Below are positions 1 through 17,178 of a DNA stretch of 17,178 nucleotides, one piece after another. The translations under genes were made by a program, and so were the position numbers. Numbering within the stretch: position 1 is the stretch's first letter; each line of letters begins with the position of its first letter. Under the pieces are notes generated by a model that had not been told where the DNA came from, searched no databases, and saw only the letters and a list, made by a program, of their open reading frames with translations. This DNA is from an uncultured Prolixibacteraceae bacterium (GTDB lineage Bacteria; Bacteroidota; Bacteroidia; Bacteroidales; Prolixibacteraceae): the NCBI GenBank assembly GCA_964611525.1, contig CAZTAL010000160.1, positions 1 to 17,178 on the forward strand, read 5' to 3'.

Positions 1-1
1 C

Positions 2-538
2 CTATATTCTAGGTCTTCTTTTTTCAAGTTCCCTATCTAATAACATATTTAAAAAAGCTGTTGGTTGTAAAAAATAGTTTGCGTTATCATCAAGTTTCTC
101 TTTAATTAGAGTCAAGCCACCATTAGTATATGACTCCATGGTATTAATAAGCTGTTTTACTACTTCATCTTCTGACAACTCGCCTTTTTCAAGTGCAATT
201 AAATCAATATCAGTTTTCGCTATTAATGCACTAAAAATATATTCTTGTAGGTGAGTAAAATCTTTTCTGTCTAACCTGTTTTTACTCCCCCAATATTGAA
301 TATGATGACTAAAGTCTGTTTTCTTTTCACCCTGAGGAATTGGCGAAAACTCATCATTATATAGACCAAGAAAAAAAGCAAACATATATAGTTCGTAATT
401 TGTACTAAAATGTTTACCTAAACTAATTTTCTTTTCACCTTCAGCCCCATACTTTTGTGATAATGATTCAAATAAATCTTTGAATCTCTCACTGTATCGA
501 GGAATACGTGTTTTCCATTTATCAAACAAACTATTCAT
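2..538 (-). CDS. Hypothetical protein, N-terminal 178 aa only; the C-terminus lies beyond the left edge of the window. It is the last visible gene of the putative defence operon.
   Basis: ORF with ATG at 538..536, starting 2 nt after the stop of the upstream ATPase gene (541..543) on the same strand. No motif recognised. One R-x4-H (RKDFTH) is present, but that is not significant alone. Confidence 0.5.
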   Translation of the reverse strand: MNSLFDKWKTRIPRYSERFKDLFESLSQKYGAEGEKKISLGKHFSTNYELYMFAFFLGLYNDEFSPIPQGEKKTDFSHHIQYWGSKNRLDRKDFTHLQEYIFSALIAKTDIDLIALEKGELSEDEVVKQLINTMESYTNGGLTLIKEKLDDNANYFLQPTAFLNMLLDRELEKRRPRI

Positions 539-540
539 AG

Positions 541-2682
541 CTAAAGCCTGATTACATTAGTATTAATTGTACTTAATTTATTTTTATCGAATGGTCTTTC
601 TCTTTTTATCCAGAAAGCTTGATGTCTCTTGACATCATTAAATTCTGGTTTAATTGCCTGATTACCATCTTTATCTTTTACAATAAAATCATAAAATAGA
701 ATTATTCTTTGTTTACCGGTTTCATAAACCAAATTAAGGAAGTCTTTTGTTTTGGTTTCTCCAAATGATGATGTTGGTGCATCGAAAATCATAGGATAGT
801 TTTCATCATCTCTATTCTCAGAAGCTAATTCTGATATCGCAAACAATATAGCCATATGCATAGATGTTTCTAAAGATTGGTTTGGACTTGAAAACAGTTT
901 ATTATCCTCATGTAATTCAATATCAACATAAAACTGTTCACTCATTTTCTTTTTAATGAATACTATTTCACCAGTAAAATCATCTATATTTATCTTTTGG
1001 AATATAATATTTGATTTCTTTTGCAATTGATCTATAAATTCATTGTACTTCTTTTCTTTGGTATCTTTAAAAACTATTTCTATATCGCGTAATATTCTTC
1101 TTGTATTGATCAGAAAATTATTTGCGCTATTAATATCAATTTTATCTTTCTCATCATTTAGATTTTTAAGTATCTGTTCAATTTTCAGTAATTTAACTTT
1201 ATTCTCGTTTAATTCTCTGTTTATATTCTTACTATCTTTCTGCCAACCATTATAATTTTTTAATACATTAGAAAGTTTATCAGCACCGAGGGAAGAAGTT
1301 CCAATTATTCTATTTAGATCATTTTGTTCTTTTTCAAGTTTCTCATCCATTTCTTTTAATTCCTGTTTTCTTTTAGCTATAAAATCAAAAAAATCCGATA
1401 TCTCCTTTTTTTTTGATTTTAAACTTCCCAAGTTATCTTCATGAATAATACTTAAGTTGATTAATCGACTTAAATAGTCGTTTTCAAACAGTACTTTTTT
1501 CTGAGTTTCTTCTTTCAAATTAGGATTTTGGCTTTCAAGATATTGCGTTAATCTTTCTTCCATAAATTTCAGAGATTTCTCATCTAAATCCCTACCACAT
1601 ACTTTACAGAAGTTATCTTTTATCATTTCCTCCATATAGACTTTTGAAGGAACTCCGACCGGCAAAGGTATATAATCCTTTAGCTGTTCTTTAAGTTTTC
1701 TTTTCCCTTCCGCAATACCCGCCTGTTTATCAAATTCTTTTTGCAACTCTCTTTTCGTACTACTTAAATTTTCTATTTTTCCTGCAAATTCATTATGAAT
1801 GTTTTCAAAATTTAATAAGATCCATGATTCATCAAATAAATTTGTAGTATAATTCTCTACTACTCGCCTTTCAGTTATGGATATTTCTTCTTCAATTTTT
1901 TTAATTCTTCCTTTTACGGTATCAAATGCTTCTGCATTGTCAACAAATTTCTCAGCCTCTTGCAGATGCCTCTCGATTTTTCTCAAATGTTGTTCTGACG
2001 AATCAATAAAAATTTGAATCTTATTTTTTTGTTCTAATTGATATTTGATTTCTGCTTCAAGTCGGTTATATTCTCTTTGATTTTTTTGATTGTTTCGTGA
2101 ATCCTTATCTACTGCCTTCTCTGCTTCCGTTCTAAGATATTCCCCTTTCTTTGCGTACTTTTCGTAATATTTAGCGCTGGAAAATGAGTTTATCAAATTA
2201 CTTAAAGCGTCAACATTTTCAAAGATATTAAGTTCTGCTTCTCCTTTAAACATCGAATATCGCCTAATTTCATATGGGAAAATTCTATCTAAAAGCATGT
2301 AGCCATCAACTTGATCCCTCTCTCCGTCTTTGTTTTCCTCAATCCCTTCAACACTATAGTTTCTCGTCGAAATTTCACTATCGCTTTCTTTTGTTACAAG
2401 GAAGTATTTCGTAATAGTGATGTTTTCACCATACTGCTCTGCACTAATTAATACTCTCACTCTAAATTGACCACCGCTATAGCTTTCTTTTATCTTTTTT
2501 GCTGAAACTAAGGCTTCTAAGTTTTTATCATTTCCATTAAAAAGCCAAAATATTGCTTCAAAAAATTTTGTTTTCCCTTCGCCATTATCGCCTAATATGA
2601 TATTTAAACCGAGTTTCAAATCAAATTCATTAATATCATAGTAACATTGAAAATTTTCTAGAATTATCTTTTTAATAATCAT
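541..2682 (-). CDS. Coiled-coil ABC/SMC-type ATPase (RecF/SbcC/DndD-like, AAA_23-type N-terminus), 713 aa
   Basis: N-terminal Walker A GDNGEGKT (nt 2592..2569). There is a long K/E/L-rich central region typical of a coiled coil. At the C-terminus an ABC-like Walker-B/D-loop reads YPMIFDAPTSSFG (nt 792..760); compare the canonical hhhhDEPTSALD. The start ATG overlaps the stop of the upstream 76-aa gene (ATGA at 2679..2682). Confidence 0.8.
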   Translation of the reverse strand: MIIKKIILENFQCYYDINEFDLKLGLNIILGDNGEGKTKFFEAIFWLFNGNDKNLEALVSAKKIKESYSGGQFRVRVLISAEQYGENITITKYFLVTKESDSEISTRNYSVEGIEENKDGERDQVDGYMLLDRIFPYEIRRYSMFKGEAELNIFENVDALSNLINSFSSAKYYEKYAKKGEYLRTEAEKAVDKDSRNNQKNQREYNRLEAEIKYQLEQKNKIQIFIDSSEQHLRKIERHLQEAEKFVDNAEAFDTVKGRIKKIEEEISITERRVVENYTTNLFDESWILLNFENIHNEFAGKIENLSSTKRELQKEFDKQAGIAEGKRKLKEQLKDYIPLPVGVPSKVYMEEMIKDNFCKVCGRDLDEKSLKFMEERLTQYLESQNPNLKEETQKKVLFENDYLSRLINLSIIHEDNLGSLKSKKKEISDFFDFIAKRKQELKEMDEKLEKEQNDLNRIIGTSSLGADKLSNVLKNYNGWQKDSKNINRELNENKVKLLKIEQILKNLNDEKDKIDINSANNFLINTRRILRDIEIVFKDTKEKKYNEFIDQLQKKSNIIFQKINIDDFTGEIVFIKKKMSEQFYVDIELHEDNKLFSSPNQSLETSMHMAILFAISELASENRDDENYPMIFDAPTSSFGETKTKDFLNLVYETGKQRIILFYDFIVKDKDGNQAIKPEFNDVKRHQAFWIKRERPFDKNKLSTINTNVIRL

Positions 2683-2909
2683 ATGGCTGCTTCATTTAGA
2701 TACTGATTAATTATATTTCTTAAACCTGAGTCAGTAACTGAATTAGGTCCTTCCAAATTGTCCACAATCAGGGCTATGGCTTTAACGATAGGAATGTCAC
2801 TTATTAATGCATCATGAACAGTTTTCGGTAATAACTCCTTATCTAACTTATAATTACTTGCCAGTATTTCATGAGACAAAAAACTACATAAAATTTTATC
2901 CTTTCTCAT
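2679..2909 (-). CDS. Small hypothetical protein, 76 aa, sandwiched between the helicase and ATPase genes
   Basis: ATG at 2909..2907, 11 nt after the helicase stop. Its stop overlaps the ATPase start. No recognisable motif. The position is analogous to the small middle components of SMC-like defence systems, but that is inference. Confidence 0.5.
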   Translation of the reverse strand: MRKDKILCSFLSHEILASNYKLDKELLPKTVHDALISDIPIVKAIALIVDNLEGPNSVTDSGLRNIINQYLNEAAI

Positions 2910-2920
2910 AATACCTATAT

Positions 2921-5143
2921 TTATTGTTCTTCAAAATCATAAAGATTTAAATTATAATATTCTAAGATATTCTTTAATTCTTCATAAGTATCAATTTTAT
3001 TCATTGATAATGACGAGAAATCAACTATTCGTTCTAATTCTTTCTTAAATAGATTTCGTTCCATTTCAAAATTCTCTTGCTCCTTATCAATTTTAGGTAC
3101 TACAACTAAATCATGTATCGTAGAATGAACTTTATTTTTATGGAGTCTCAATACTCTGCCTCGTCTTTGAATAAATTGGCGTGGATTACCAGTACTAGCA
3201 CAAAAAATAGCTAATTCTGATCGTGGAACATCAACACCTTCATCCAAACATTTCATAGATGTAAGGACATGAATCTTTCCATGCTCAAAATCTTTTATAA
3301 CTTCACTTCTATTCTTAGTTCTTGCGGTATACTGTTTAACGAGAATGGATAAATCAATATCTCTTACTATTTTTGTGTACTCTCGGATCAGTTTTTCCTC
3401 ATTATCCTCTTCAATATATTCATCAGTCTTGGAATAATCAGGATCCTTACCCTCTGGTACGTAAATGAGCGTATATTTAATATTTCCTTTTCCCCTAAAT
3501 TCATTATTTAGGATTTCATTAAATATTGACTTTTTATTTCGTGCTTTGTGTATTATTCTTTTCCTCGCCAATAAAAGTGTTTCAACCTCCGGGCAGTCTT
3601 TATATTTACCAGTAGTTGAATCAATAAATTTCAGCAATTGGAAGGACTTTTGAATGTATTCATTAAGCTCATCATCATCTAAAGTAACAGTATGTGGAAA
3701 ATACTTGTATTTGCATAACCATCCCATTTTAAGAGCTTGTTTCATAGAGAAATTAAAAATATATGGTGCTTTATCATTGAAAAATTGATCAATTTTTATG
3801 TTACCTTCAATATCATATTTTCTTTCAGGAGTGGCTGACAAACCAATTCTTTTGTTCAAGTGTATTTTAGCAAGGAGTTTACTTATGCATGGTGCACCCA
3901 TGTTATGTAATTCATCAGCTATGAGGATTGTTTCTCTTGAGAACTGTTTAAAATGATTTTGAAATTTCTTTCGTACAAAAGAGGCATAAGTAATAATTAC
4001 AATGAAAGAAGCATTCACTAATTTATTTGCTGTATTAAAGAAGGATAACTCATCATTCCAATTCTCCTTTGAACTTATTTGGATAATATTTTTGAAATTA
4101 AATTTATAGCATTCCTTTTTCCATTGGTCAACTAAAGCTATAGTTGGAACCAGTATTACAGCTTTGTAATAATTTTGATCTTTGTACTCATTTAATAAAC
4201 AATTTAAAGATGTGATTGTCTTTCCTGTTCCTGTAGCCATTGCAAAAATGCCTCTTCTCCCGTTTTTCAACCATTTTTGATAAGCTTCTATTTGGTAGGG
4301 TCTTGGTCCATTCGGATATGGAAATTTTGGTTTCTGTTTCTCTTCTTTAACTTTTTTCTGAAAATCAGAGGCATATTTGAAAAAAATTTTTTTTATATAT
4401 GGAAGTCGGGAAAGTTTTTCATAAACATTTTTTTCATCTTCTACTAATTCATCTAACTGTTTATCTTTTCCGTTTTCTTCTATAACAGCAATAATTTGGT
4501 CCGGATTTAAATATACAAATCCTTCATCTTCCTTTGAGCATATTTTTTCAATGATTTTAGTATTATCTTTAACTTTTATCTTTTCAGAATTTTCTCCCCA
4601 GGAACGGGCTATTGAAAGACTTTCGCCATTATCAACCAATCCACGATAAGTAAAGTTACAACTTCCATTGAAATATACCTGATTGATTCCATCATTTAAA
4701 ATGCCCTGTTTGAAATGTGCTAAACGGTGTGGTTTAAGTTTTACTGGAATAATTATCAATCTGTTATGCCGTAATAAGTATTTTAAGCAATCAAAAAAAT
4801 GTTGATCACCTCTTTCAAGAATTTTTGCGAGTTCTTCTAACTCATTATTAATTATATATTTTATCTCCTCGTCCTGAACGTATGATTCTATTATGTCATC
4901 CGAAATCAGAAGTTTGTCTTTAATAGATAAGAAATGATTTGTGATAATTCTTAGAATACCACCATTTTGAATAAACTGTGCGAAACCGTAAGCCAGAGTT
5001 CTAATAGCATTTGAACTAAAATATCCAAGTTTTAAATCAATTTTTTTACATTCAGGTATCGTAAGCATAAAAAACTCTATCGGAAGATGGTTCCCGTCAG
5101 AACTATATTCTAAAGATTCAGAATATTTAATATTTGTAAGCAT
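2921..5143 (-). CDS. PLD-family (HKD) nuclease domain fused to an SF2 DExH/ResIII-type helicase, 740 aa
   Basis: N-terminal HKD motif HFKQGILNDGINQVYFNGSCN (nt 4717..4655), matching HxK(x)4D/N(x)6GSxN. Helicase motif I is AMATGTGKT (nt 4240..4217), motif Ia VLVPTIALVDQW, motif II ILIADELH, motif III GLSATP and motif VI QRRGRVLR. ATG at 5143..5141. Confidence 0.85.
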   Translation of the reverse strand: MLTNIKYSESLEYSSDGNHLPIEFFMLTIPECKKIDLKLGYFSSNAIRTLAYGFAQFIQNGGILRIITNHFLSIKDKLLISDDIIESYVQDEEIKYIINNELEELAKILERGDQHFFDCLKYLLRHNRLIIIPVKLKPHRLAHFKQGILNDGINQVYFNGSCNFTYRGLVDNGESLSIARSWGENSEKIKVKDNTKIIEKICSKEDEGFVYLNPDQIIAVIEENGKDKQLDELVEDEKNVYEKLSRLPYIKKIFFKYASDFQKKVKEEKQKPKFPYPNGPRPYQIEAYQKWLKNGRRGIFAMATGTGKTITSLNCLLNEYKDQNYYKAVILVPTIALVDQWKKECYKFNFKNIIQISSKENWNDELSFFNTANKLVNASFIVIITYASFVRKKFQNHFKQFSRETILIADELHNMGAPCISKLLAKIHLNKRIGLSATPERKYDIEGNIKIDQFFNDKAPYIFNFSMKQALKMGWLCKYKYFPHTVTLDDDELNEYIQKSFQLLKFIDSTTGKYKDCPEVETLLLARKRIIHKARNKKSIFNEILNNEFRGKGNIKYTLIYVPEGKDPDYSKTDEYIEEDNEEKLIREYTKIVRDIDLSILVKQYTARTKNRSEVIKDFEHGKIHVLTSMKCLDEGVDVPRSELAIFCASTGNPRQFIQRRGRVLRLHKNKVHSTIHDLVVVPKIDKEQENFEMERNLFKKELERIVDFSSLSMNKIDTYEELKNILEYYNLNLYDFEEQ

Positions 5144-5699
5144 TAATTCATTTAGTTTTATTTTTTGTTAAAAAAAGTATTCATTGGTGATGATAAAGTT
5201 AAAAATAAAAAACTGGAAGTGAAAATGACTTATTTACATAAATTTTACCTATAAATCTGATCTAGCAATTTAGGGTGCTATAACATTCACAACAACTAAT
5301 CACCCGGAAAACTTGTTATAAACAACCAGCAAAGACAATATTGGAACTTTAAAAGCAACATTCTTTGGTATTTAACGTTTACTATCACTGATAATCCCTT
5401 TCTTTAAAAAAGTAAAATATTAAAAGCTCTTTCTTTAATATTAGCTGCAACTTGTGGTTATATTCCGTTATTAAATAACTTGGTCATCCATTTATTTTAC
5501 TGTCGGTTGAAATTAATACCCCAGTCTTCGTTTTTCTCAAATAATCATCACTGAATTAATTCTCTATTGATTCACACTATTGTCACAGCTATTATTCAAT
5601 AAATCTAGGTTTCTTCGGATTGCCATTTGAAATTTTTCCACAATATATATAAAACGCATATTAAAAAGGACAAATTAAAAGTGGATACATAGAGACAAT

Positions 5700-6030
5700 T
5701 ACAGTTAGATAGCGACCCAAAAAAGGAACCGTCTCAGACAGCCCTTTTGGGGGTTAATCATCGAAGCTGATCTGCTGTTCGCATTCACGGATCCTGTCAT
5801 TGACCACGTTCTGCAAAGTATCCAAAACAGTGTTTATAACCAGTGAATGACTTGTCTTGAATTCCTGTCCGGTTAAGTCCTGGCACGCCGGTTAAATTTT
5901 GGTGGCCACCATTTGAGCCACGACGGATACGCGCAAGGGTGGATTCAGCCGTGATAACTAATTAATAGAGTTCATATATCCTTGCGCATTCCGGAGGGCG
6001 ATTAATAACTTTGCCGTGGTTTAAACGGAT
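5700..6030. other. GC-rich non-coding island inside an AT-rich intergenic region. It is either a degraded gene or mobile-element remnant, or a structured RNA.
   Basis: Composition jumps relative to the flanks. Short stop-bounded open frames lacking start codons occur on both strands, for example a 55-codon minus-strand frame of roughly 5790..5955. There is an 8-bp GC-rich inverted repeat, gcgcaagg at 5931..5938 and ccttgcgc at 5980..5987. A weak hairpin plus T-run lies at about 6013..6040, just before the promoter region of the 6109 gene. Confidence 0.3.
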
Positions 6031-6108
6031 TTTTCTTTTAAATAAAATATAAAAGCAATTATTCCACTTTAACAATTACCTTTAGAAAAGTTTTAATAAA
6101 AAAGATAA

Positions 6109-7590
6109 ATGCAGGTAAAAGTAAACAGAAAGGATGTCAAATTTTGTCCGGATGCATCCAGGATAATAGCGCGGTTTCTTTACACGGGAGATGAAAAAGC
6201 GCTTAATACCATCCGCTTGGTACTTGGCATGTCCAATAATATGGTATTACAAGCTTTAAGCCCCTTGCTGAGAGACTACTCGCTTCGTCACAGAAATATC
6301 TCAAAGATTTTTGAAAGGCATTTTAATAAAATCGCATATCTTTTAAAACAGTTAAATGTTGAACCCGAGTCACTCGACATATCCCAAAAAATACTTATCG
6401 GCTCTTATTTTACCATGGAGTATTCGATTGAATCAGCCGCTTTTTTTAACCCCTCGATTGTTGAACACCCTGATCAGGCGGAGATAGGTGCGGATGAAAA
6501 AAGAGTTATATTAAGTTTCAGAGCTACCGGTGAAGGACATATTTCATCCATAATTTTCAGAACAGGGGTATTGGATAAAAACAATAATCTTTCTATAGAA
6601 CCTGTCGGGAAGATGCTCGAAGAAGCAGTGCATATCCGTCGGCACTTATATGATAAATCATCCTTTAAAAGTAAGCTTAATGAAATGAAGGATATTCATC
6701 CAATTATCCCTTACGGTTTAATTATGGATAAGTTAAAAGATACATTTACTTATGGCGAACTTCGGGATTGTATTAAAGAAGCAAGAAAGTCATTGCATCT
6801 TACTGACGAGAAAGAAGTTTTGTTTAATCAGATTACCTGGCTGGCTTCGTCGCATTACGAACTTGAATTTTCTCTGGATACCAACATTTCTGAACGGGTA
6901 ATTTTTCCTGTATCAGCAAACGAAAAAAATGGAATTGAGGATGCCCGTTTCGTAAGATTCGTTGATGATAACGGGAAAATTAGATATTATGCAACCTATA
7001 CAGCATATGACGGTACCACTATATTACCAAAGATGCTTGATACTCCGGATTTTTATCATTTTCGGATATTGCCTATTCATGGTGAAATTGCTCAAAACAA
7101 AGGGATGGCACTTTTCCCGCGTAAAGTGAACAGAAAATACGCAATGCTATGCAGATTGGATGGCTTCAATAATTACATTGCTTATTCTGATAATATTTCG
7201 ATTTGGCGCAGAGCTACATTACTGCAACAACCAAAGTTTCCGTGGGAATTTATTCAAATCGGTAATTGTGGTTCTCCTATCGAAACGCCTGAAGGCTGGT
7301 TAGTTATAACCCACGGGGTTGGTCCGATGCGTGAATATAGTCTCGGGGCATCATTGTTTGACCTCCAAAATCCCGAAAAAGAGATCGGCAGGTTGAAATC
7401 ACCCTTATTATTCCCTAATACCAAAGAGAGGGAAGGTTATGTTCCCAACGTGGTTTATTCCTGCGGCTCCATGATTCATAATGGCGATTTAATAATTCCC
7501 TACGCCATGTCTGATTATGCATCAACTTATGCAACAGTTGATTTACGAGAACTATTGAATGAGTTGAAAAACTCTAAATATGAAAAATGA
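6109..7590 (+). CDS. GH130-family protein (beta-mannoside phosphorylase/hydrolase-like, DUF377 fold) with N-terminal extension and internal insertion, 493 aa
   Basis: The C-terminal two thirds match the GH130 pattern: FFNPSIVEH, GIEDARF (EDPRI-like), RYYATYTAYDG, NKGMALFPRKVNRKYAMLCR, NYIAYSDNISIW, IGNCGSPIETPEGWLVITHGV, SLFDLQNPEKEI, GYVPNVVYSCG, and the C-terminal motif PYAMSD, which corresponds to the YGAAD motif of characterised GH130 proteins. ATG at 6109 sits in an A-rich context. Confidence 0.75.
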   Translation: MQVKVNRKDVKFCPDASRIIARFLYTGDEKALNTIRLVLGMSNNMVLQALSPLLRDYSLRHRNISKIFERHFNKIAYLLKQLNVEPESLDISQKILIGSYFTMEYSIESAAFFNPSIVEHPDQAEIGADEKRVILSFRATGEGHISSIIFRTGVLDKNNNLSIEPVGKMLEEAVHIRRHLYDKSSFKSKLNEMKDIHPIIPYGLIMDKLKDTFTYGELRDCIKEARKSLHLTDEKEVLFNQITWLASSHYELEFSLDTNISERVIFPVSANEKNGIEDARFVRFVDDNGKIRYYATYTAYDGTTILPKMLDTPDFYHFRILPIHGEIAQNKGMALFPRKVNRKYAMLCRLDGFNNYIAYSDNISIWRRATLLQQPKFPWEFIQIGNCGSPIETPEGWLVITHGVGPMREYSLGASLFDLQNPEKEIGRLKSPLLFPNTKEREGYVPNVVYSCGSMIHNGDLIIPYAMSDYASTYATVDLRELLNELKNSKYEK

Positions 7591-8231
7591 GGAATCGTAT
7601 AGAAACAGAAAAGCGACAGTGGCTTGAAATTGGAGCAGTTATTTTAACTGGTTTAATGAAATATGTTTTTATGGACTGGCTGGAACTGCGCATTTTTTAT
7701 ATTGGTGTTGCCTGTTTATTCTGGACGATTTACATTTATAAAAGTTATCAGGATAATAAGCTGATTCTGCAACATTGGGGATTTCGAAAAGATTATTTTA
7801 AGAATGTTTTCCTGTTTCTCATGCCTTTTGCTCTGGTGATTATAGCAGCAATTCTTTGGTATGGTATTTCAATCAAAAAAATCACCCTTAACTGGCATTT
7901 AATTCCTGTATTTGTTTTTTATCCGCTATGGGGAATCATTCAGCAATTTTTAATAATGGCACTTGTTGCCGGAAATTTGCAGTCATTATCAGCAGTAAAA
8001 CTCAGGAAATACCAAATTATCCTGTTGATTTCAGTGTTATTTGCACTGGTTCACTATCCAAGTTTACCATTAATGTTATTTGTTTTTTTAATGGAGTTTT
8101 TATTTACCAGCGCTTATTTTAGATGGAGAAACCTTTGGCCTTTGGGCCTTTACCATGGGTGGGTGGCCAGTTTGCTTTTGTTTTTTGTGCTGGGTCGTGA
8201 TTTATGGAATGAACTATGGAAGGTATTCTAA
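7587..8231 (+). CDS. Polytopic membrane protein, 214 aa, with weak CPBP/Abi-like (CAAX-protease-fold) resemblance. It is translationally coupled to the GH130-like gene.
   Basis: ATGA overlap with the upstream stop (7587..7590). There are at least 6 hydrophobic helices. FALVH (FxxxH-like, H at 8052..8054) and LYHGW are present. The position where CPBP motif 1 (EExxxR) would lie reads IIQQF (7941..7946). The family assignment is tentative. Confidence 0.55.
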   Translation: MRNRIETEKRQWLEIGAVILTGLMKYVFMDWLELRIFYIGVACLFWTIYIYKSYQDNKLILQHWGFRKDYFKNVFLFLMPFALVIIAAILWYGISIKKITLNWHLIPVFVFYPLWGIIQQFLIMALVAGNLQSLSAVKLRKYQIILLISVLFALVHYPSLPLMLFVFLMEFLFTSAYFRWRNLWPLGLYHGWVASLLLFFVLGRDLWNELWKVF

Positions 8232-8294
8232 GAGATTTACCCTATTATAAGGTCGAATTCATATGTAGTTAATTCACTCAAATATGCTATAAGA

Positions 8295-9020
8295 TTAAAT
8301 ATGAAAAAACCGTTTCAGGTCGGTAGCTTTTTTCAATCGGTAATGAATATAAAATAAAACTATGGAGATAAATACAACAGAAACAATCACAATCAGACTC
8401 CATCCAAATTTAAGGGTGTTGCCGGAATAAAGTGCAATTATTCCATCGGCGCAAATGCTTAACAAACCCGCAGCAATAAGCGAATAGGCGATAATATTCA
8501 ACCCTTTTTGTTTTGATCTTCTTATCATAAAAGAGAGAATAAAAACAGTTACATACGCTGCCAATAACATTGGCAAACCCAGGTTCAGCTCGAAACTAGT
8601 TGCTTTGGTATAAATATCTAACAGGATTAAAAGAACAGCAGTTGATAGAAAACTAATAGCCGTAAACAGTATAACTCTTTTGTGTGAGAAAGTGTACAGA
8701 GTAATATTAATAAATATAATCAACCCGACTGTTGCCGGATACTTTGACCATAGGATGGTCTGATTTTCAACCAGATTGATTACCAAAGTCATAATTATAC
8801 CTGAGATAAGGATTATACCCGAGATTTTCCAGAAAATCTTTCTTTTCTGCAGCCCTGTTAGTTTTTGAAAATCTGTTAGCAGTTTTTCTTCCTGCTGTAG
8901 TTTTCGGGATTTTAGATAGGCTAAATTATTAATGTTCTCATTTATCAGGGGTTCACCGCATAGAGAACAAAAATTAGCATTTTCTTCCAATTCTACACCG
9001 CAATGTGGACATTGTCTCAT
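8295..9020 (-). CDS. Membrane protein with N-terminal zinc-ribbon (CPHCG...CSLCG), 241 aa
   Basis: ATG at 9020..9018, 6 nt downstream of the acyltransferase stop. A CxxC-x13-CxxC motif is followed by 5 or 6 hydrophobic helices. Confidence 0.65.
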   Translation of the reverse strand: MRQCPHCGVELEENANFCSLCGEPLINENINNLAYLKSRKLQQEEKLLTDFQKLTGLQKRKIFWKISGIILISGIIMTLVINLVENQTILWSKYPATVGLIIFINITLYTFSHKRVILFTAISFLSTAVLLILLDIYTKATSFELNLGLPMLLAAYVTVFILSFMIRRSKQKGLNIIAYSLIAAGLLSICADGIIALYSGNTLKFGWSLIVIVSVVFISIVLFYIHYRLKKATDLKRFFHI

Positions 9021-9026
9021 TTTTCT

Positions 9027-10376
9027 TTATTTATTTGTTTCCAATTCAACAGCAATGTTCTGATCATTCATAAATTGAAGGAATTTTTCTTCAAATTTTC
9101 TCGAACTGGTTATATTGGCAAAACTTAGCACCAATTTATCTCCAAAACCAATTACACCACAACTTATTTTCAACATTTTATTGGGGGGTGGTGGCGTCAT
9201 AATAAAATGATCAACGAATTTTCCTGTTTCAGCCGGCAGTTCTATTTTCCCCAGGTTCGTAATAACCCCGCTGTATTGGTTTGTGCCTAAGGAATAGTAT
9301 TTCAACCGCAGAATTAAACTTTTCAGGAATAGCGGTATTCCACGGACATATAGTTTTTTTTCACTGCCGACGTTTCTTGAAATATTCTTATTGATCAACT
9401 TTTTATCTGTTTCTAGTTTTATCTGATGATAAACTGTTTTGATTATTTCATCAAAAGTATAATATCCGAGCCGCAGATCAATTTCAGGCATAACGAATAA
9501 TGAAAAATTGCGCATGGTTTTCGACGGAAAAATTTGTCGTAAATTAATGGGGACCTGAATACGAAGTATTTTATTCTTTTTGTATTTGCTCAAATTATTC
9601 AGATTTTTATATATTTCCTGCAAGGCATACAGGTAAACCGATACAAGATAAATAGTGAGGCTTACCCCTTTCCCGTTGGCAACCTTTTTCATTTGTTTCA
9701 ACGAAATGATAACGTTCATCAATGTCAGGCGGGGCTTGGCTTTTAGGGGATAAGGAAGGTGGAACGCTTTCGATCTTTTCACTATTGGAGGAATCTCTTC
9801 CTTGAAATAACGTTTATAAGCATCCTCATACTCCTCTTCTGAAACAGGGCCAATCGGATCGTTCAAATGATATTCGTGGGGAACTTCAGCCCCACATTCC
9901 AAAGAATATCTTACCAGAATAGATTTGAAAAACTCAAATGCTCCGCTGCCATCGGTTAAAATATGGGAAAATTCAACGCTTATGCTGTTGTTCTTCAGCA
10001 GGATTCGTATTAACAATCCTCCTTTGGAAAATTTCCTACAGCACTGTTTATCATCCACTTCAATGGAAATGTGCTTCGGCAGATATTCAAGGTAATACCA
10101 GAAAAACCCTTCTAAGAGTTGTACCCGGTAATAGGGAAACTGTTTTTCTGCAAACAAAACAGCTTTTCTTAAAGGTTTTATTTTAACGGGTTGTTTTAAT
10201 ATCGCCGACAATCTGAATACAGCTGTAACCTCTTTCGTGATAATGGCTGGAAATATTTTTGCTGCATTATCAAGAGTTATCCAAAATTTTTCGGGTTCTG
10301 ATGTAATATGGCTGCTTTTATTATACAAAGAAATATGCTTTTGTTGATGTAAAGAAATACAAATTTTAAAATACAA
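9027..10376 (-). CDS. HxxxDG-motif acyltransferase (WS/DGAT-, PapA5- and condensation-domain-like), about 449 aa
   Basis: FSHILTDGSGAF, with HILTDG at nt 9965..9948, lies about 138 aa from the start. That is the same position as HHAMVDGVAG in WS/DGAT enzymes. The only in-frame start after the upstream stop is TTG at 10376, and there is no ATG in the first 200 codons, so the exact start is uncertain. Confidence 0.7.
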   Translation of the reverse strand: MYFKICISLHQQKHISLYNKSSHITSEPEKFWITLDNAAKIFPAIITKEVTAVFRLSAILKQPVKIKPLRKAVLFAEKQFPYYRVQLLEGFFWYYLEYLPKHISIEVDDKQCCRKFSKGGLLIRILLKNNSISVEFSHILTDGSGAFEFFKSILVRYSLECGAEVPHEYHLNDPIGPVSEEEYEDAYKRYFKEEIPPIVKRSKAFHLPYPLKAKPRLTLMNVIISLKQMKKVANGKGVSLTIYLVSVYLYALQEIYKNLNNLSKYKKNKILRIQVPINLRQIFPSKTMRNFSLFVMPEIDLRLGYYTFDEIIKTVYHQIKLETDKKLINKNISRNVGSEKKLYVRGIPLFLKSLILRLKYYSLGTNQYSGVITNLGKIELPAETGKFVDHFIMTPPPPNKMLKISCGVIGFGDKLVLSFANITSSRKFEEKFLQFMNDQNIAVELETNK

Positions 10377-10508
10377 ATTTATTAATTATCATGGAATTAT
10401 ACGCTTCTGGTCTAACTGGTTTTAAAACTAAATGTGTGAATTATGTAACTCTTATTCGGAATTGTGAAAAATATGCGTAACTTGCACGGAATTAATAAAT
10501 TTATTACA

Positions 10509-10700
10509 ATGAACAAAGGAACAGTAAAATTTTACAATGAAACCAAAGAGTTTGGATTCATTAAAGACAACAATTCATCTAAAGAGTATTTTGTGCATTC
10601 ATCTGGTTTAAAAGATAATATCAGGGAAAATGATGAAGTAACTTTTGATCTGGAAGAAGGGAAAAAGGGATTAAATGCAGTGAATGTTAAACTTGCATAG
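10509..10700 (+). CDS. Cold-shock protein (CspA family), 63 aa
   Basis: MNKGTVKFYNETKEFGFIKD is the classic RNP1/RNP2 cold-shock domain. ATG is at 10509. The ORF-track TTG at 10464 would add 15 non-conserved residues and is less likely. A strong terminator follows. Confidence 0.9.
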   Translation: MNKGTVKFYNETKEFGFIKDNNSSKEYFVHSSGLKDNIRENDEVTFDLEEGKKGLNAVNVKLA

Positions 10701-10730
10701 TTTTGAGAAAATAATCAATTATAATATTGT

Positions 10731-10753
10731 CCCGCTGTTGGCGGGATTTTTTT
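10731..10753 (+). terminator. Rho-independent terminator of csp. Its T-run overlaps the stop codon of the convergent GT4 gene.
   Basis: Stem cccgc (10731..10735), loop tgttg, stem gcggg (10741..10745), then a ttttttt (10747..10753). Confidence 0.7.
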
Positions 10754-12998
10754 ATACTATTTTTAAGTCCGATTCATGATATTCTTCGTAAGCCTGCAGC
10801 ACCGTTAAATGAGAAATTAAGTAGGCCAGCGAACTTTCAGCCCCCTGGTTTCGGTTTACACCATAACTTTCGAATCCATCACAACATCCTTTAGTTTCAA
10901 AATCATACAAACTCATCCGCAAATCATTTTCACCCAGAAACCACAAAAAAGAGGTGTATAGTTTATTGAGGTAATCCTTGTCTTTGGTTACATGAAATGC
11001 CTGATGATACATTAACACCATAGCCATTGCATCAATAGGTTGCTGTGCAAAAACAGATCGTTCACCCTCTTTTTTATACCATTTTTCATTTCCAATAATC
11101 GAAAGGTAATTATCAATTAAAGTATGGTTTGTCAAAAAATTCATCGATTCGATTGCCGTTTTTGTAATTTTATTGTCGTTCAGTATTTCTGCTGAATGTA
11201 AAAGTGCCAGAGGTAAAATGCCATTATCATAAGCCAGTAAAGATTCGAACCATTTCCAATCAGTTGTCAGGTTTTCCATATATTGTTTTATTAATACATT
11301 CGCGAGATTTCTCAATCTTTCAGTCATGGAATCGTCTGACGGATTGCTTTTCAGATAGTAACAAATCCCAATCATTGTATTGGCAATCCCCCGGATAGAT
11401 TTCAATTTTTCAAAATTGGGAGCTGCATTAAAGAATACAAGTTTACCGGTTTGATAATAAGCATCATTTGGAGCATTTCCCAATAAATAGCCCAGAGCCC
11501 AAATCGTCCGGCCAAACGAATCTTCAGAGCCAATATCATCCAAAAAATTGCGGCTAAAACTCAGAAAATTACGGAAAGTCCCGTCTGCATTTTGCATGTA
11601 ATGAATATAGCTTAAATATATAGGAGACAATTCAAGAGCCCGTCTGTCTTTCATCTGCCGGAAAGCCATTAAAACCATCAGTAAAGCCCGCGAATTATCA
11701 TCCAGGCAATATCCTTCTTTTAAATTGGGGATACCAAATTTTGCATGTTGTATAATACCGGTGTCATCAGTCAAACGATTAATGTGTGCAAGCGAAAAGG
11801 GAGGAAGGATGAGTAAATCAGGTTCCGTTTCTTTCCGGAAAATAACCGGACTTTCTTCCTTCACTATTTTTTCGGCAAGTGTAACGTATTTTTCACCGGT
11901 TTTTGGCCAGGTAATTTTTCCCCCATATTCACCGGCTTTATTTTTTAGCTTATTGAGTTCTTCAGGTTTATCCAGGAGTTCAGTTAATATTTTCGCCAGC
12001 TCCGCGAAATCCTTAAAATTAAAGAGCCTACCCCTTCCTTTAGCCAGTAGCTCTGCGGCATGCCAGTAAGGTGTTGAAAGAACAGCCGCACCCACTCCAA
12101 CGGCATACGAAAGGGTTCCGCTGGTAATCTGGGCTTCATTCAAATAAGGTGTGATGTAAATATCACAGGCATATAGATATTTGAACAAATCCTGTTCGTC
12201 AATAAATTCGTTAAGAAATATTACATGATTTTCAAGCTGAAGATTTTTTACCAAACGCCATAAGAAAATTCGGTATTCTTCGCCGGAATGCCGTAACACA
12301 TTTGGGTGGGTTTTCCCCAGAACAATATAAATAACTTCGGGATATTTTTTCACTACTTCGGGCAATGCTTTTATAACTGTTTCAATACCCTTGTTGCGAC
12401 CAACAAAACCAAAAGTTAATAATACTTTTTTGTTTTGGAGTTTAAACTCTTTTTTTGATTTTTCGGGACTAAAATGAATATCCGGAACGCCATGTTCAAT
12501 CAGGACAATTTTTTCTCTTTGCACATCGTAAATACTTACCAAAAACTCAATCGCTTTATGGCTCATCACAACAATTTTATGGGCCATTTTACAAATTTCT
12601 TTCAAAATTGCTTTTTCGTTGTACGAAGGTGTTTTGAGAATTGTATGAAGTGTAACAATGAATGGAATTTCAAGCCGGTGAAGCAAAGGAAGTATATATA
12701 TCCCGCTTTGTCCCCCAAATATGCCAAATTCGTGCTGAAGGATACAAACATCGGCACCGCTAAGATTAATGTATTTCACCGCTTTTAAATAATCTTCCTG
12801 ATAATCTTGTCTGATGGTTAATTTAACTTCTTGCGGGTATTTATAAGTAAGATCGTTGTCATTTATTCCAACCACAAAACCTTCATGCTTGTGTTCATTT
12901 CGTTCGTTGGGCGTTAACATCGACCTGAACAGGTTGTTTGTAAAGGTTCCAATGCCGCATTCGCGGGGTGGATATGTAGCGATATAAGTGATTTTCAC
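10752..12998 (-). CDS. GT4 glycosyltransferase fused to a C-terminal (alpha/alpha)6-barrel glycoside-hydrolase-like domain, 748 aa
   Basis: The N-terminus MKITYIATYPPRECGIGTFT and the block GFVGRNKGIETVIKAL...LGKTHPN...ITPYLNEAQITSGTLSYAVGVGAAVLSTP are GT4/GT-B-like. The C-terminal roughly 370 aa is rich in aromatic residues and contains QGAESSLAY. It resembles six-hairpin glycosidases (GH63/GDE-like), but I am not certain of that. GTG at 12998 is the first start after an in-frame stop. Confidence 0.75.
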   Translation of the reverse strand: MKITYIATYPPRECGIGTFTNNLFRSMLTPNERNEHKHEGFVVGINDNDLTYKYPQEVKLTIRQDYQEDYLKAVKYINLSGADVCILQHEFGIFGGQSGIYILPLLHRLEIPFIVTLHTILKTPSYNEKAILKEICKMAHKIVVMSHKAIEFLVSIYDVQREKIVLIEHGVPDIHFSPEKSKKEFKLQNKKVLLTFGFVGRNKGIETVIKALPEVVKKYPEVIYIVLGKTHPNVLRHSGEEYRIFLWRLVKNLQLENHVIFLNEFIDEQDLFKYLYACDIYITPYLNEAQITSGTLSYAVGVGAAVLSTPYWHAAELLAKGRGRLFNFKDFAELAKILTELLDKPEELNKLKNKAGEYGGKITWPKTGEKYVTLAEKIVKEESPVIFRKETEPDLLILPPFSLAHINRLTDDTGIIQHAKFGIPNLKEGYCLDDNSRALLMVLMAFRQMKDRRALELSPIYLSYIHYMQNADGTFRNFLSFSRNFLDDIGSEDSFGRTIWALGYLLGNAPNDAYYQTGKLVFFNAAPNFEKLKSIRGIANTMIGICYYLKSNPSDDSMTERLRNLANVLIKQYMENLTTDWKWFESLLAYDNGILPLALLHSAEILNDNKITKTAIESMNFLTNHTLIDNYLSIIGNEKWYKKEGERSVFAQQPIDAMAMVLMYHQAFHVTKDKDYLNKLYTSFLWFLGENDLRMSLYDFETKGCCDGFESYGVNRNQGAESSLAYLISHLTVLQAYEEYHESDLKIV

Positions 12999-13059
12999 CT
13001 TTTGGTTATTGTGTTTTAGAAAGTAACTTTACTCTCAGAAATTCTCGTTAAATCAGGAA

Positions 13060-13194
13060 TTATATTAAACTTGAATTACTTTTACGGGACTTTTTTGCAG
13101 CTTTATCGAATCTTTTTTCTTTCAGGCTCCTTACTGCTTCCTTTTTCGTGTTCTTCCTCTTTTTCCCTTCTTTTTTTTCTTTCCCTTTTGTCAT
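13060..13194 (-). CDS. Possible 44-aa lysine-rich small protein, 24 nt downstream of floA. It is not in the supplied ORF track.
   Basis: The reading runs ATG at 13194..13192, then MTKGKEKKEGKKRKNTKKEAVRSLKEKRFDKAAKKSRKSNSSLI, then TAA. On the plus strand this is an extreme polypyrimidine tract. The frame could be open by chance through low complexity. Confidence 0.25.
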   Translation of the reverse strand: MTKGKEKKEGKKRKNTKKEAVRSLKEKRFDKAAKKSRKSNSSLI

Positions 13195-13218
13195 GATATT
13201 TGTTTTAAAAGTTAAGTA

Positions 13219-14178
13219 TTATTCTCCCGCTATGGAATCACGCATAGAGGTATCTGCCATTATGTTTTTATATTTCATATAATCCATTACGCCGAGGTTG
13301 CCTTTATCTAAAGCTTCAGCAATGGCTAGCGGCACTTTTACCTCAGCTTCAATGACCTTGGCCCTGGCTTCCTGTGCCTTAGCTTTCATCTCCTGTTCCA
13401 TGGCTATAGCCATAGCACGGCGCTCTTCAGCTTTGGCCTGAGCAATATTTTTATCAGCTTCGGCCTGATCCATTTGCAATGCGGCTCCAATATTTTTCCC
13501 TATGTCTATATCGGCAATATCGATCGAAAGTATTTCAAAAGCAGTGCCTGCATCAAGTCCTTTTTCAAGCACTACACGTGAAATAAAATCAGGATTTTCC
13601 AACACGGTTTTATGCGAGTGGGATGATCCTATTGATGAAACAATACCTTCACCAACGCGTGCAAGAACGGTTTCTTCACCTGCTCCGCCAACAAGTTGCT
13701 TAATATTTGCCCTTACAGTAACTCTTGCTTTTGCAATCAACTGTATGCCGTCTTTTGAAACAGCGGTAACAGGCGGTGTATTGATCACTTTTGGGTTTAC
13801 CGACATTTGAACAGCTTCAAATACATTGCGCCCCGCCAGATCAATGGCTGTGCTCACCTTAAATGATAGATCGATGTTCGCTTTTGATGCTGATACCAGA
13901 GCATGAACAACACTTGCAACATGTCCCCCCGCAAGATAGTGCGCTTCAAGATCGTCGCGATTAAGATGGACCCCAGCTTTCGTGCCTTCTATGAGGGCAC
14001 GGACGATAACTCCCGGAGGAACTTTACGGAAACGCATCAGGAATAGTTGCAGAAGAGATATTCTGACACCTGAAACAAGAGCTGAAAACCATAATCCAAT
14101 TGGGATTAAATAAAGGATGATAAAAAATAATACAATTATCGCTATTATTAATCCCCATGTACCGATTGATTCAATCAT
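13219..14178 (-). CDS. floA: Flotillin-like protein FloA (SPFH/band-7 family, YqfA-type), 319 aa
   Basis: An N-terminal transmembrane helix is followed by [61 protein letters not shown] and [42 protein letters not shown]. These are collinear with Bacillus FloA. The local GC content is visibly higher than in the rest of the window. Confidence 0.9.
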
Positions 14179-14676
14179 TTTTTATTTATTTATAGGTTCT
14201 ACAATTATTCATTTGATAATCTTTAAGTATTTTATTTTGGCATTATGATCTATGAAACCACCAGTTGATTGGGTCTTTCAGTATTATCTGTTTCTAAATA
14301 ATCTTCCGTCATAGTCAAATTTCCATTAAATATTTTAGTATAAAAAATTTGATTATCTCTTTGACCTCGTTCGACTGGACTAACAAATCGTGGCCTATGG
14401 AAAACTTTTTTTGATTCAATTGCTATTATAATATTCCTTGTGTTATTAATAACGATTTAACTTAAAAGATGCATAGGAAATGTTTCTGTCAGTCCATCAT
14501 TTTCCGAGAATAAGTTAAACAATCCAATAAGGATTTAATTTAAAGATTTCGTATTTTTTTTAAATTTTATAATTGATAATCAAAGATATTGAAAGTATTC
14601 AATTTGTAACCACAAAAATAAAGCAATTTGTATTTTTTATTTATTTTATTTTTAAATGTTGCTAGTTCTCTGATGT

Positions 14677-15447
14677 TTATAACTTTTTTAATACATAGCT
14701 AAAATAAATATATTTATGTGATACAAATCGATTATATGTTTCAGAACCAATTGTTCCGGCAAAATTCAGGGCAATTTTACAGAAAAATTTTGGAATTAAT
14801 TTTTTTACAAGTATGCGCTTGCGTTGATCATCCAGCTTCAGGGCAGCTACAACTTCCTTATTAATGAATCTTTCTTTAAGAACAGACATCCCACTTAACT
14901 CCAGTTCCTTCCTCATGTCTTCCATTTCATAATCGTATCGAAAATCTGTAAATAAAAAATATCCATTAGGACGCAAGATACGAGATACTTCTACCAGAAA
15001 TGCTTTTATATCAGGGTAACGGTGCGATGATTCAACATTTATAACCACATCACAGCAATTATTCTTGAGATTTAAATTCTGTGCATCGCCGTGTAGAAAC
15101 ATTAAACCATTCGACGAATAATGGCGGTTACAAAATGCTACAGCCTGTTTATTCAGTTCTACCCCTTTAGCCGAGGCAGGTGAAAAATTCCTGGCGATAT
15201 AGAACAATCCTCCTCCCCGACCACAACCTATTTCTACAATATCTTTATTTTTTATCTCTGCAGCACTTACCAAATGATGATATAACTGGATAGGGTATCG
15301 ATCATGCTCATTTTGTTCATCCAGTGGGATTTCCTGATTACCATTACTATATCCGTAGTTCATAAATAAAATCTCTGCATTTTTATCAATCTTATTCAAA
15401 TACCAATACCAAATTTTAAACATAATTTCACGAAAACTGAACTTCAT
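14677..15447 (-). CDS. Class I SAM-dependent methyltransferase, about 256 aa
   Basis: Motif I is VEIGCGRGGG. The region LNYGY-like (FMNYGYSNG) precedes it, and the acidic post-I motif is GDAQNL. The start is placed at ATG 15447..15445, 7 nt after the upstream stop. The ORF-track TTG at 15522 and the ATGs at 15495 and 15489 would overlap the upstream gene by 35 to 68 nt. The start is uncertain. Confidence 0.75.
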   Translation of the reverse strand: MKFSFREIMFKIWYWYLNKIDKNAEILFMNYGYSNGNQEIPLDEQNEHDRYPIQLYHHLVSAAEIKNKDIVEIGCGRGGGLFYIARNFSPASAKGVELNKQAVAFCNRHYSSNGLMFLHGDAQNLNLKNNCCDVVINVESSHRYPDIKAFLVEVSRILRPNGYFLFTDFRYDYEMEDMRKELELSGMSVLKERFINKEVVAALKLDDQRKRILVKKLIPKFFCKIALNFAGTIGSETYNRFVSHKYIYFSYVLKKL

Positions 15448-15454
15448 AGTAATA

Positions 15455-16168
15455 TTAAAAATTATTTGACTTATTGTTTTCCAGATCATATACATGAAAG
15501 CGCACCTTTTGAGCCCAATCAAAGTAAGATAAAAATTTAGTAAATATGTGATATGATATAGGCTTCCCTATTTTAACTTTTATGGTTTTATTTCTCTTTT
15601 TAAACATCTCACGAGGCAAGAGCAATAACTCAATATTAACCTTGATCCCAAACCATTTCCTTATCATATATACCATATAAAATAAATTGGAATTTCTGCC
15701 ATAAAAATAGAAGGGGACTATATCTCTTTTACTTGAAGTAGCTTTTGCTATAAAACTTTTTTGCCACGCTGAATCCTGCACTTTTCCATTATTTAGTCTT
15801 GATACTATACCTGCAGGAAAGTGTGTAATGGGAATTTCTGAATTATATGTATCATTCAGCGCTTTTACATACTCTTTTGAAGAACGTCCGAAAACATTTA
15901 CCGCTGCAATCAATGGGCGCAATTGAGGCACAAACATAAAAGCATCATTAGCTATTGCTTTCAGGGTGCCATATTTTTTAAATACAATGAAGGTCAATAC
16001 TAATCCATCTATCACACCAAAAGGATGGTTTGCGACAAAAAAGCACTTTGCATTTTCCGGAAGGTTTTCTTCTCCTTCAATTTCCAACTTTAAATTAAAC
16101 TCTTCGATTATATTAATAAGAAAATTTAATCCACCACAATCTGAATACTTATCAAGAATACGGTTCAT
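15455..16168 (-). CDS. PlsC/LPLAT-family (lysophospholipid-type) acyltransferase, 237 aa from the first ATG
   Basis: NHPFGVIDG is an NHxxxxD block-I variant (H at 16027..16025). HFPAGIVSR is an FPEG-like block III. The upstream in-frame extension EIIKFNKDIKYIDIAKIINESNSKLLNKLPGFAVKWIAKIIREDE looks protein-like but contains no ATG, GTG or TTG, so the true N-terminus may differ. Confidence 0.75.
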   Translation of the reverse strand: MNRILDKYSDCGGLNFLINIIEEFNLKLEIEGEENLPENAKCFFVANHPFGVIDGLVLTFIVFKKYGTLKAIANDAFMFVPQLRPLIAAVNVFGRSSKEYVKALNDTYNSEIPITHFPAGIVSRLNNGKVQDSAWQKSFIAKATSSKRDIVPFYFYGRNSNLFYMVYMIRKWFGIKVNIELLLLPREMFKKRNKTIKVKIGKPISYHIFTKFLSYFDWAQKVRFHVYDLENNKSNNF

Positions 16169-16494
16169 TTCGTCTTCCCTGATAATTTTTGCAATCCATT
16201 TGACGGCAAATCCAGGTAGTTTATTTAGTAATTTTGAATTACTTTCGTTAATAATCTTTGCAATGTCGATATACTTTATGTCTTTGTTAAATTTTATGAT
16301 TTCTTACAATTTATCATTAACCTTTTTTTATTGATTTATCTTTAAAAATTGATGTCAAATTTAATCTTTGAACGAGTTCTTGTTTCACTTCATCAATGTG
16401 ACTTCTTTTAAAGGCAGACAAATTTAAGTTTTTAATTTGGATTTTGTCCACCATACAATCTTTAAACAAACAAATAAAAATAAAATATCCCCAA

Positions 16495-16719: not shown

Positions 16720-16731
16720 TTGACTTGAATA

Positions 16732-17073: not shown

Positions 17074-17178
17074 AGACCTAATTTAAAAGTAGATCAATCA
17101 CTGTTATAATTTGTCTAAAAAGTTTGCTTGGTAAGTTATTCTTTTGAAAAATAATTATTTATCCTCAATAAGCTTTTG

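Follow-up and report, generated by a model that had tools for sequence, protein, structure and literature searches.

Whether an ATPase of the ATP-binding cassette (ABC) type that lacks the catalytic glutamate of its Walker B motif is a decayed copy or an ordinary member of its family is the question raised by a 17,178 nt stretch of DNA from an uncultured Prolixibacteraceae bacterium (contig CAZTAL010000160.1 of assembly GCA_964611525.1, positions 1 to 17,178 of the forward strand; 'the window' denotes this whole stretch). The gene concerned occupies 541..2682 on the minus strand, an uninterrupted open reading frame (ORF) for a PbeC-like coiled-coil ABC ATPase of 713 aa with a CxxC zinc hook. 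An earlier note, made from the sequence alone, had found alanine at the position of the catalytic glutamate and had taken the replacement for a degeneration special to this ATPase. The alanine was confirmed, but it proved to be family-wide and the glutamate was also lacking in DndD and in Dnd-adjacent PbeC proteins, so that the feature is an ordinary one for its family and not a degeneration of this copy.

On the minus strand, nt 792..760 (ATG ATT TTC GAT GCA CCA ACA TCA TCA TTT GGA) encode MIFDAPTSSFG, residues M631 to G641, with M631 at 792..790, D634 (GAT) at 783..781, A635 (GCA) at 780..778 and G641 (GGA) at 762..760. About 30 aa later, nt 711..685 (CAA AGA ATA ATT CTA TTT TAT GAT TTT) encode QRIILFYDF, in which Q658 (CAA) lies at 711..709, Y664 (TAT) at 693..691, D665 (GAT) at 690..688 and the last codon (TTT) at 687..685. 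Both segments were read exactly as the earlier note had given them, and the Walker A motif, or P-loop, GDNGEGKT (G31–T38, nt 2592..2569), which was aligned to the P-loops of Rad50 and SMC3, was likewise found intact.

In HMMER searches of the PDB, whether by the single protein or by a profile of 26 sequences, the alignments were confined to the N-terminal lobe, and the register of the C-terminal lobe was therefore taken from hhalign against the C-terminal chain of Rad50, the reference being the P. furiosus C-terminal sequence that is identical to residues 57–148 of 1F2T chain B (1F2T_B). The family C-terminal profile placed YPLIFDAPTSSF[DG] opposite SLLILDEPTPYLD, and DAPTSSFG opposite DEPTPYLD of Rad50. 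The equivalences (window = Rad50) were D634 = D822, A635 = E823, G641 = D829, Q658 = Q849, Y664 = H855, D665 = D856 and N601 = S793. The Walker B strand and D-loop equivalent MIFDAPTSSFG (760..792) thus has D634 as the Walker B aspartate, A635 at the catalytic-glutamate position and G641 at the position of the D-loop aspartate, and the H-loop equivalent QRIILFYD (Q658–D665, 688..711) has Y664 where histidine is expected. The signature motif LSGG is replaced by P600-N601-Q602-S603 (874..885) at the N-terminus of helix 602–623, N601 lying opposite S793 of Rad50 and the serine of LSAGE in DndD. A full-length profile–profile comparison with DndD by hhalign gave the same register (probability 99.8 %, E 8e-30, residues 1–706 against 1–653).

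An AlphaFold model of the ATPase, with 26 homologues in the input and a mean predicted local distance difference test score (pLDDT) of 74.6, contained in its C-terminal lobe strand 572–580, strand 583–592, helix 602–623, strand 632–634 (IFD), helix 645–655 and strand 661–662. This series follows the ABC order of signature helix, Walker B strand, D-loop, helix and H-loop strand, and so supports the D634/A635 register. The head is split, and long helices (174–333 and 403–564) flank an apex bearing the putative zinc hook CKVC (C359-K-V-C362, 1597..1608), identified by conservation and from the model, to form an antiparallel coiled coil. Foldseek comparison with the PDB returned Rad50 (7zr1, 4.9e-19) and also SMC, MukB, JetC and LmuB (9hqx, 9hqu). 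The ATPase has the Walker A motif, a Walker B aspartate after the signature helix, the inserted coiled coil and the CxxC hook of its class; it has alanine for the catalytic glutamate, PNQS for LSGG[QE] and tyrosine for the H-loop histidine. On these alignments and the model, MIFDAPTSSFG is assigned as the Walker B/D-loop equivalent with A635 at the catalytic-glutamate position, and the residue-by-residue register proposed earlier (alanine for the glutamate, glycine for the D-loop aspartate, tyrosine for the histidine) was borne out.

A different register, in which the true Walker B would be YVDIE (Y585–E589, 916..930) some 50 residues upstream, had been raised as an alternative, and the segment does superficially fit the pattern hhhDxE. 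It is, however, poorly conserved, with D587 in 12 and E589 in 18 of the 116 aligned family sequences described below, and it lies in strand 583–592, an arm of a β-hairpin ahead of the signature helix. Because both the Rad50 and the DndD profile alignments put the Walker B aspartate at D634, the DAPTSSFG assignment was taken as correct, YVDIE was rejected, and the chance that the register is mis-assigned is negligible.

Conservation was assessed in two sets of homologues. The close set comprised the 120 best homologues (54–66 % identity); the wide set came from a search of 1.84 billion cluster representatives that gave 565 matches, of which the 116 full-length sequences among the best 150 were aligned, the representatives having at most 50 % mutual identity and extending down to about 21–27 % identity. 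D634, A635 and the P, T, S, S and F that follow were each present in 120/120 sequences of the close set. In the wide set D634 was found in 115/115 and A635 in 114/115 (one glycine), alongside P636 (110), S638 (112) and F640 (109), the Walker A residues N33 (115), G36 (114) and K37 (114 of 116), and Q658 (115/115). The hook cysteines C359 and C362 were present in 115 of 116 sequences each, the CxxC form of the hook (CKVC) being clade-wide. Within the Q-loop region F145-K146-G147-E148 (2239..2250, minus strand), placed by conservation and by the DndD and Rad50 alignments, E148 occurred in 115/116, G147 in 112 and F145 in 110 sequences, and position 146 was variable (K79, Q21, E8). Of the columns in an alignment of 48 sequences (mean column identity 33 %), only 13 were invariant, A635 among them, and in the ranking of all 713 columns by conservation A635 fell in the top ten, level with the Walker A lysine. 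No acidic residue other than D634 and E148 reached 90 % conservation. As judged from these alignments, alanine after the Walker B aspartate belongs to the family as a strictly conserved, strongly selected trait and is no lesion of the window copy.

Two further departures accompany the alanine family-wide: the H-loop histidine is missing, being mostly lysine and here tyrosine, and LSGGQ is replaced by P-N-x-[SA]. Position 664 was lysine in 111 and tyrosine in eight of the 120 close homologues, and K95, Y12, L3, F2 and M1 in the wide set. There the signature-serine position 601 was N90 and S21, position 603 was S72/A43, and the D-loop aspartate position 641 was D42, G37, T13, S12 and A7. The tyrosine of the window copy, where most relatives have lysine, recurred in 12 scattered representatives, from which lysine and tyrosine appear to have interchanged repeatedly.

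A lesion confined to this copy, or a sequencing error at 778..780, might be suspected from the departure from the hhhhDE consensus and from Y664. Both are refuted by the family alignment, and the same tyrosine is present in 12 separate representatives. The ORF is unbroken, with translational coupling to its neighbours, in an operon whose four genes are all intact, and the identical 713-aa protein is recorded on four contigs from three sources; this identity, together with the 120 of 120 close homologues that carry alanine, excludes the sequencing error raised earlier. The probability of either explanation is practically nil.

The glutamate is missing from related families as well. A degenerate DNA pattern for IDTPLGRLD was scanned over species-representative genomes and gave at least 120 loci, those among the matches listed including Streptomyces, cyanobacteria, Vibrio, Halorubrum, Priestia and Flavobacterium. 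Of these at least 120 loci, 118 fell in DndD-like proteins, or contig-truncated fragments of them, with the motif series LSAGE[KR]Q ... IDTPLGRLD-x-x-HR ... QV[IL]LLSTD, and six pattern proteins from six phyla all scored above the cut-off of the DndD model TIGR03185. In the profile alignment with DndD, A635 stood opposite the threonine of IDTPLGRLD, Y664 opposite the threonine of LSTD, and F-K-G-E148 opposite F-D-G-E, the glutamate of which was present in 79/79 sequences of the DndD set. Two of the DndD loci (L054 and L105) each had a motif-bearing stop-to-stop frame of about 1160–1185 aa with Walker A near residue 550; their length suggests that DndD is joined there to an extra N-terminal domain of some 500 aa, or else that the stop-to-stop translation has run through from an upstream gene.

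Further matches to the family profile were present at the IDTPLGRLD loci, and the five that were examined were all strong PADLOC PbeC matches (E 0 to 5e-52, 175–1030 bits) in stop-to-stop ORFs of 680–711 aa. After the Walker B aspartate these Dnd-adjacent PbeC proteins read DAP (two), DSP, DTP and DSV; their hooks were of the CxC type (CMC, CVC, CIC), and they had an F-x-[GA]-E-type Q-loop motif (DGLE in one). In none of the sampled members of the three related families was glutamate found after the Walker B aspartate. By this comparison of motifs, the missing glutamate is a conserved signature of the known DndD/PbeC assemblage, of which the window gene is a divergent, Ssp-linked member.

Canonical PbeC shows considerable variation in its active-site motifs. 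Some Dnd-adjacent PADLOC-PbeC proteins, as in L016 (4615–6732, minus strand), join a CxC hook to DndD-like motifs (LSAGEKE ... MDTPFGHLDTRHR), and in others, as in L122 (4323–6455, minus strand), the D-loop is strongly eroded (FLDSVFAPTD).

From gene order and profile matches, the ATPase gene is assigned as the third gene of a PbeABCD-like defence operon for a PLD-nuclease/superfamily 2 (SF2) helicase, a small protein, the ATPase and a putative DndE-like protein, in keeping with the role in defence suggested in the earlier note. The four genes (A, small B, ATPase C and small D, of 740, 76, 713 and 178 aa) lie on a single strand with overlapping or abutting ends, and the A–B–C–D order is the same in every related locus and in PbeABCD (Xiong et al. 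2019; PMC6459918). PbeABCD has been re-described by Aravind and colleagues (Krishnan/Aravind; PMC10853773) as a core of a 'CxC-type ABC ATPase + DndE cognate' accompanied by an HKD-SF2 nuclease and by a small protein that evolves rapidly; the CxC-type hook is the character that names the CxC clade, and DndD/CxC ATPases coevolve with their DndE partners. In the archaeal system none of pbeB, pbeC and pbeD is dispensable for defence (PMC6459918).

The PbeA-like effector (740 aa, 2921..5143, minus strand) comprises an N-terminal PLD/HKD nuclease and an SF2 (DExH) helicase. It matched the PADLOC PbeA model PDLC02706 at 2.5e-291 over residues 12–730, the Pfam families ResIII, DEAD, Helicase_C and, weakly, PLDc_2, and TIGR04095 dnd_restrict_1 at 4.9e-119, under the cut-off of that model; HFKQGILND, GSCN, ATGTGKT and DELH in its translation show that the HKD and DExH motifs are present. 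The 76-aa protein in the PbeB position (2679..2909, minus strand), recognized as an ORF that shares 4 nt at its stop with the start of the ATPase gene, had no family match in scans with Pfam, PADLOC and NCBIfam/TIGR models. Every related locus has an ORF of 66–95 aa at this position, the counterpart in L001 being 57 % identical. The 178-aa protein in the PbeD (DndE-like, dnd_assoc_4) position (2..538, minus strand) gave a weak match to TIGR04062 dnd_assoc_4 (8.8e-4, 19 bits, under the 74-bit cut-off), and its positional counterparts scored 6.4e-9, 1e-5, 3.9e-3 and 0.044, all under the same cut-off. A gene of 160–198 aa follows the ATPase in all related loci; precomputed PF27807 matches were recorded on the counterparts in L005, L011 and L133, and the L001 counterpart was 72 % identical. 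Taken together, the three non-ATPase products were 55–72 % identical to their L001 counterparts.

The ATPase itself matched SMC_N and AAA_15 in Pfam below threshold. Its best PADLOC match was LmuB (PDLC03859, 1.4e-25), and PbeC was matched at 1.2e-16 (58 bits) over the N-terminal half; TIGR03185 DndD gave no match at E ≤ 0.01. Scans of the neighbouring genes in the window with Pfam, PADLOC and NCBIfam/TIGR models gave no match to LmuA or LmuC, and tblastn of the ATPase against the PLSDB plasmids found nothing. The PbeA model was thus matched at 2.5e-291, yet the ATPase and the 178-aa protein fell far under the PbeC, DndD and dnd_assoc_4 thresholds, and automated defence finders would probably call the system incomplete or miss it.

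Compared with known systems, the window ATPase is closest in operon organization to Dnd-linked PbeC, which also stands in an operon of a PLD/HKD-SF2 helicase, a small protein, a coiled-coil ABC ATPase and a DndE-like protein (PMC10853773), is of similar size, lacks the glutamate after the Walker B aspartate and has an F-x-[GA]-E-type Q-loop motif. It differs in scoring only 58 bits on the PADLOC PbeC model, the best of 48 clade members reaching 9e-37, whereas true PbeC proteins scored 175–1030 bits. The hook is CxC in Dnd-linked PbeC but CxxC (CKVC) in the window clade, the signature is [LS][ST]GE in the former but a degenerate PNxS in the latter, and the neighbours are dndCDEA in the former and SspBCD-like in the relatives of the window locus. 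With DndD (TIGR03185) the family shares full-length profile homology, a small residue (threonine in DndD) in place of the catalytic glutamate, an H-loop without histidine (LSTD) and an invariant F-D-G-E glutamate equivalent to E148; DndD is paired with a DndE-type partner (PMC10853773), as the family may be with its 160–198-aa protein. DndD, however, keeps the LSAGE signature, the D-loop aspartate and a conserved His-Arg directly after it, is without a zinc hook (PMC10853773) and serves modification, not restriction.

LmuB of Lamassu likewise serves defence, is Rad50/SbcC-like and has a CxxC hook, and its Walker B diverges naturally, reading hhhhDD or hhhhD[Q/S/T/E]; it has been interpreted as a slow ATPase that gates a nuclease, its authors suggesting that slow ATP hydrolysis is likely (bioRxiv 10.1101/2025.04.02.646746). 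Its partners are the effector LmuA and usually LmuC, whereas those in the window are PbeA-, PbeB- and PbeD-like, and the position after the Walker B aspartate varies in LmuB but is invariantly alanine in the window family, whose match to the LmuB model is weak. Rad50/SbcC shares the fold, the split head, the antiparallel coiled coil, the CxxC hook, Walker A, the Walker B aspartate, the D-loop (PT) and the Q-x-I-x-I strand registers. Where Rad50 has DEPTPYLD with the catalytic E823, S793 (LSGGE) and H855, the window family has alanine, asparagine and tyrosine or lysine. E-to-Q substitutions in Rad50 and SMC proteins trap the ATP-engaged state (bioRxiv 10.1101/2025.04.02.646746). Degenerate sites of heterodimeric ABC transporters (CFTR NBD1, TAP1) also have a residue other than glutamate after the Walker B aspartate and an H-loop without histidine, and bind ATP stably while hydrolysing it poorly. 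In those transporters the other site of the dimer has the consensus sequence, whereas both sites would be non-canonical, and identical, in a homodimer of the window ATPase joined by its zinc hook.

The reading we favour, at a probability of about 0.7, is that DAPTSSFG is the Walker B/D-loop of a PbeC-like zinc-hook ABC ATPase in a PbeABCD-like operon which acts as a slow or non-canonical ATP-gated DNA clamp or sensor. The family has kept the Walker A lysine, the Walker B aspartate, Q658 and the Q-loop glutamate E148 invariant, and lacks the canonical Glu–His pair and LSGGQ. The ATPase would bind ATP-Mg, dimerize through its zinc hook and keep a nucleotide-dependent engagement of the heads, with ATP turned over slowly or by a non-canonical route. 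The residue most likely to stand in for the missing base would be E148, which lies opposite the Q-loop Gln140 of Rad50 (by both HMMER and hhalign) and is invariant alongside a small residue in all three families. Together with its DndE-like partner the ATPase would serve as a clamp or sensor on DNA, gated by ATP and long-lived, that reads the phosphorothioate status, and would license the PbeA-like helicase-nuclease on DNA without host phosphorothioate marks; motor activity and cleavage would come from the separate SF2 helicase and PLD nuclease. In the relatives the modification genes that partner the module are SspBCD-like; those of the window would lie past the contig end.

Several points weigh against this reading. 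The register of the Q-loop is uncertain by two residues: E148 stands opposite Q140 of Rad50 in the HMMER and hhalign alignments, whilst secondary structure and the glutamine found at position 146 in 21/116 sequences favour K146 as the glutamine equivalent. In the AlphaFold model the Q-loop (146–153) and D-loop (638–641) have pLDDT below 50, and the C-terminal hhalign to the single Rad50 sequence is weak when taken alone (E about 1e-3, probability 6–20 %). The signature motif is degenerate in the clade, unlike in DndD, so the ATP-sandwich engagement of the heads may be weakened. The DndD set was chosen by the motif itself and thus shows the threonine to be widespread, not universal; the window itself carries no modification genes; and for this clade the hydrolysis of ATP, its speed and a role for E148 are predicted from sequence.

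It is conceivable, although we hold the idea tentatively, that throughout the DndD/PbeC/PbeC-like assemblage the general base has been relocated from the Walker B strand to the Q-loop glutamate of F-x-G-E (E148), the invariant small residue after the Walker B aspartate letting that glutamate reach the attacking water. If this is true, the assemblage would be a natural class of ABC ATPases in which the catalytic glutamate has moved and turnover is tuned to be slow and gated by DNA or a partner, and the relocation would explain ATP hydrolysis by DndD without the canonical Glu–His pair.

Among the rivals, an unlikely one is that hydrolysis has been lost family-wide and that the ATPase is purely a nucleotide-binding switch, with ATP or another nucleoside triphosphate as a structural or allosteric ligand fixing the heads or the state of the complex. 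The catalytic pair is indeed gone from the family, with alanine for glutamate in 114/115 and an unconserved histidine position, PNxS has replaced LSGGQ while the binding residues K37 and D634 are invariant, and the operon has a motor ATPase of its own in PbeA, whose DExH SF2 helicase is intact. Invariance of E148 and Q658, on the other hand, exceeds what simple binding would seem to need, and a near-invariant alanine in place of drift suggests a constraint on the active site. DndD also lacks the glutamate and the histidine, but P. fluorescens DndD is reported in a review to have ATPase activity (PMC6435447, citing Yao 2009), which argues against assuming that the window ATPase cannot hydrolyse ATP; activation of LmuB was blocked by ATPγS, from which its authors infer that hydrolysis matters (bioRxiv 10.1101/2025.04.02.646746).

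The strictly small, invariant alanine could instead make room for an acidic or basic finger supplied in trans by the 76-aa protein, the DndE-like protein, PbeA or the other head, hydrolysis being licensed only in the assembled, DNA-bound complex. The constant company of the same three partners would fit such an arrangement, as would the indispensability of both pbeB and pbeD in the archaeal system and the coevolution of DndD/CxC ATPases with DndE proteins. The small protein, however, evolves fast and has no family signature, and Rad50/SMC proteins are not known to use trans-acting fingers as an established feature. The ATPase activity of DndD is reported for the protein by itself (PMC6435447), and we regard a finger in trans as improbable.

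For annotation, the missing glutamate should not be taken to mark a pseudo-ATPase or a broken copy, being diagnostic of the DndD/PbeC assemblage. The combination DAP[TV]S + F-x-G-E + CKVC marks the subfamily of the window, which the current PADLOC PbeC and NCBIfam DndD models miss. How, or whether, ABC heads without this glutamate hydrolyse ATP is a question for the whole assemblage and not for the window locus, and the choice between a slow hydrolase with a relocated base and a pure ATP-gated switch is common to DndD, PbeC and, in similar form, LmuB of Lamassu.

In all eight related contexts with enough flank (L001, L004, L005, L007, L010, L011, L133 and L135/L136), SspBCD-like genes stood beside the four-gene module: a DUF4007 protein (SspB-like), a protein of about 690–1080 aa (SspC-like) and an SspD-like protein of 367–374 aa, the last with a PAPS-reductase domain match in seven of the eight. 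A cysteine desulfurase was often present upstream of the module and a DndB-domain protein sometimes; dndCDEA genes were found beside the module in none of these eight contexts. That this subfamily is accompanied by SspBCD and not by DndCDE suggests that it provides single-strand phosphorothioation with a restriction partner; our literature search found no name for it and no description of an Ssp/Pbe-like pairing. SspFGH was ruled out as the identity of the window module, SspFGH being DndFGH-like. In the closest relative, which is 66 % identical and one of the eight, the Ssp genes begin about 2.5 kb past the PbeD-like gene. The window contig ends 1 nt after the PbeD-like stop, and modification genes of this locus, if any, are therefore off the contig end.

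On the other side of the module, about 960 nt (5144–6108) without an ORF of 40 aa or more separate the pbeA-like start from a divergently transcribed GH130 gene. The relatives have a cysteine desulfurase and a 55–62-aa ORF at this place, no remnant of either of which was found by tblastn in 5144–6108. No tRNA gene was found anywhere in the window. The remainder of the contig (6109–17178) holds the GH130 phosphorylase, membrane proteins, a glycosyltransferase and an SPFH/flotillin-like gene. Its G+C content is 35.2 % compared with 29.6 % for the defence module (1–5143), a contrast consistent with a horizontally acquired island.

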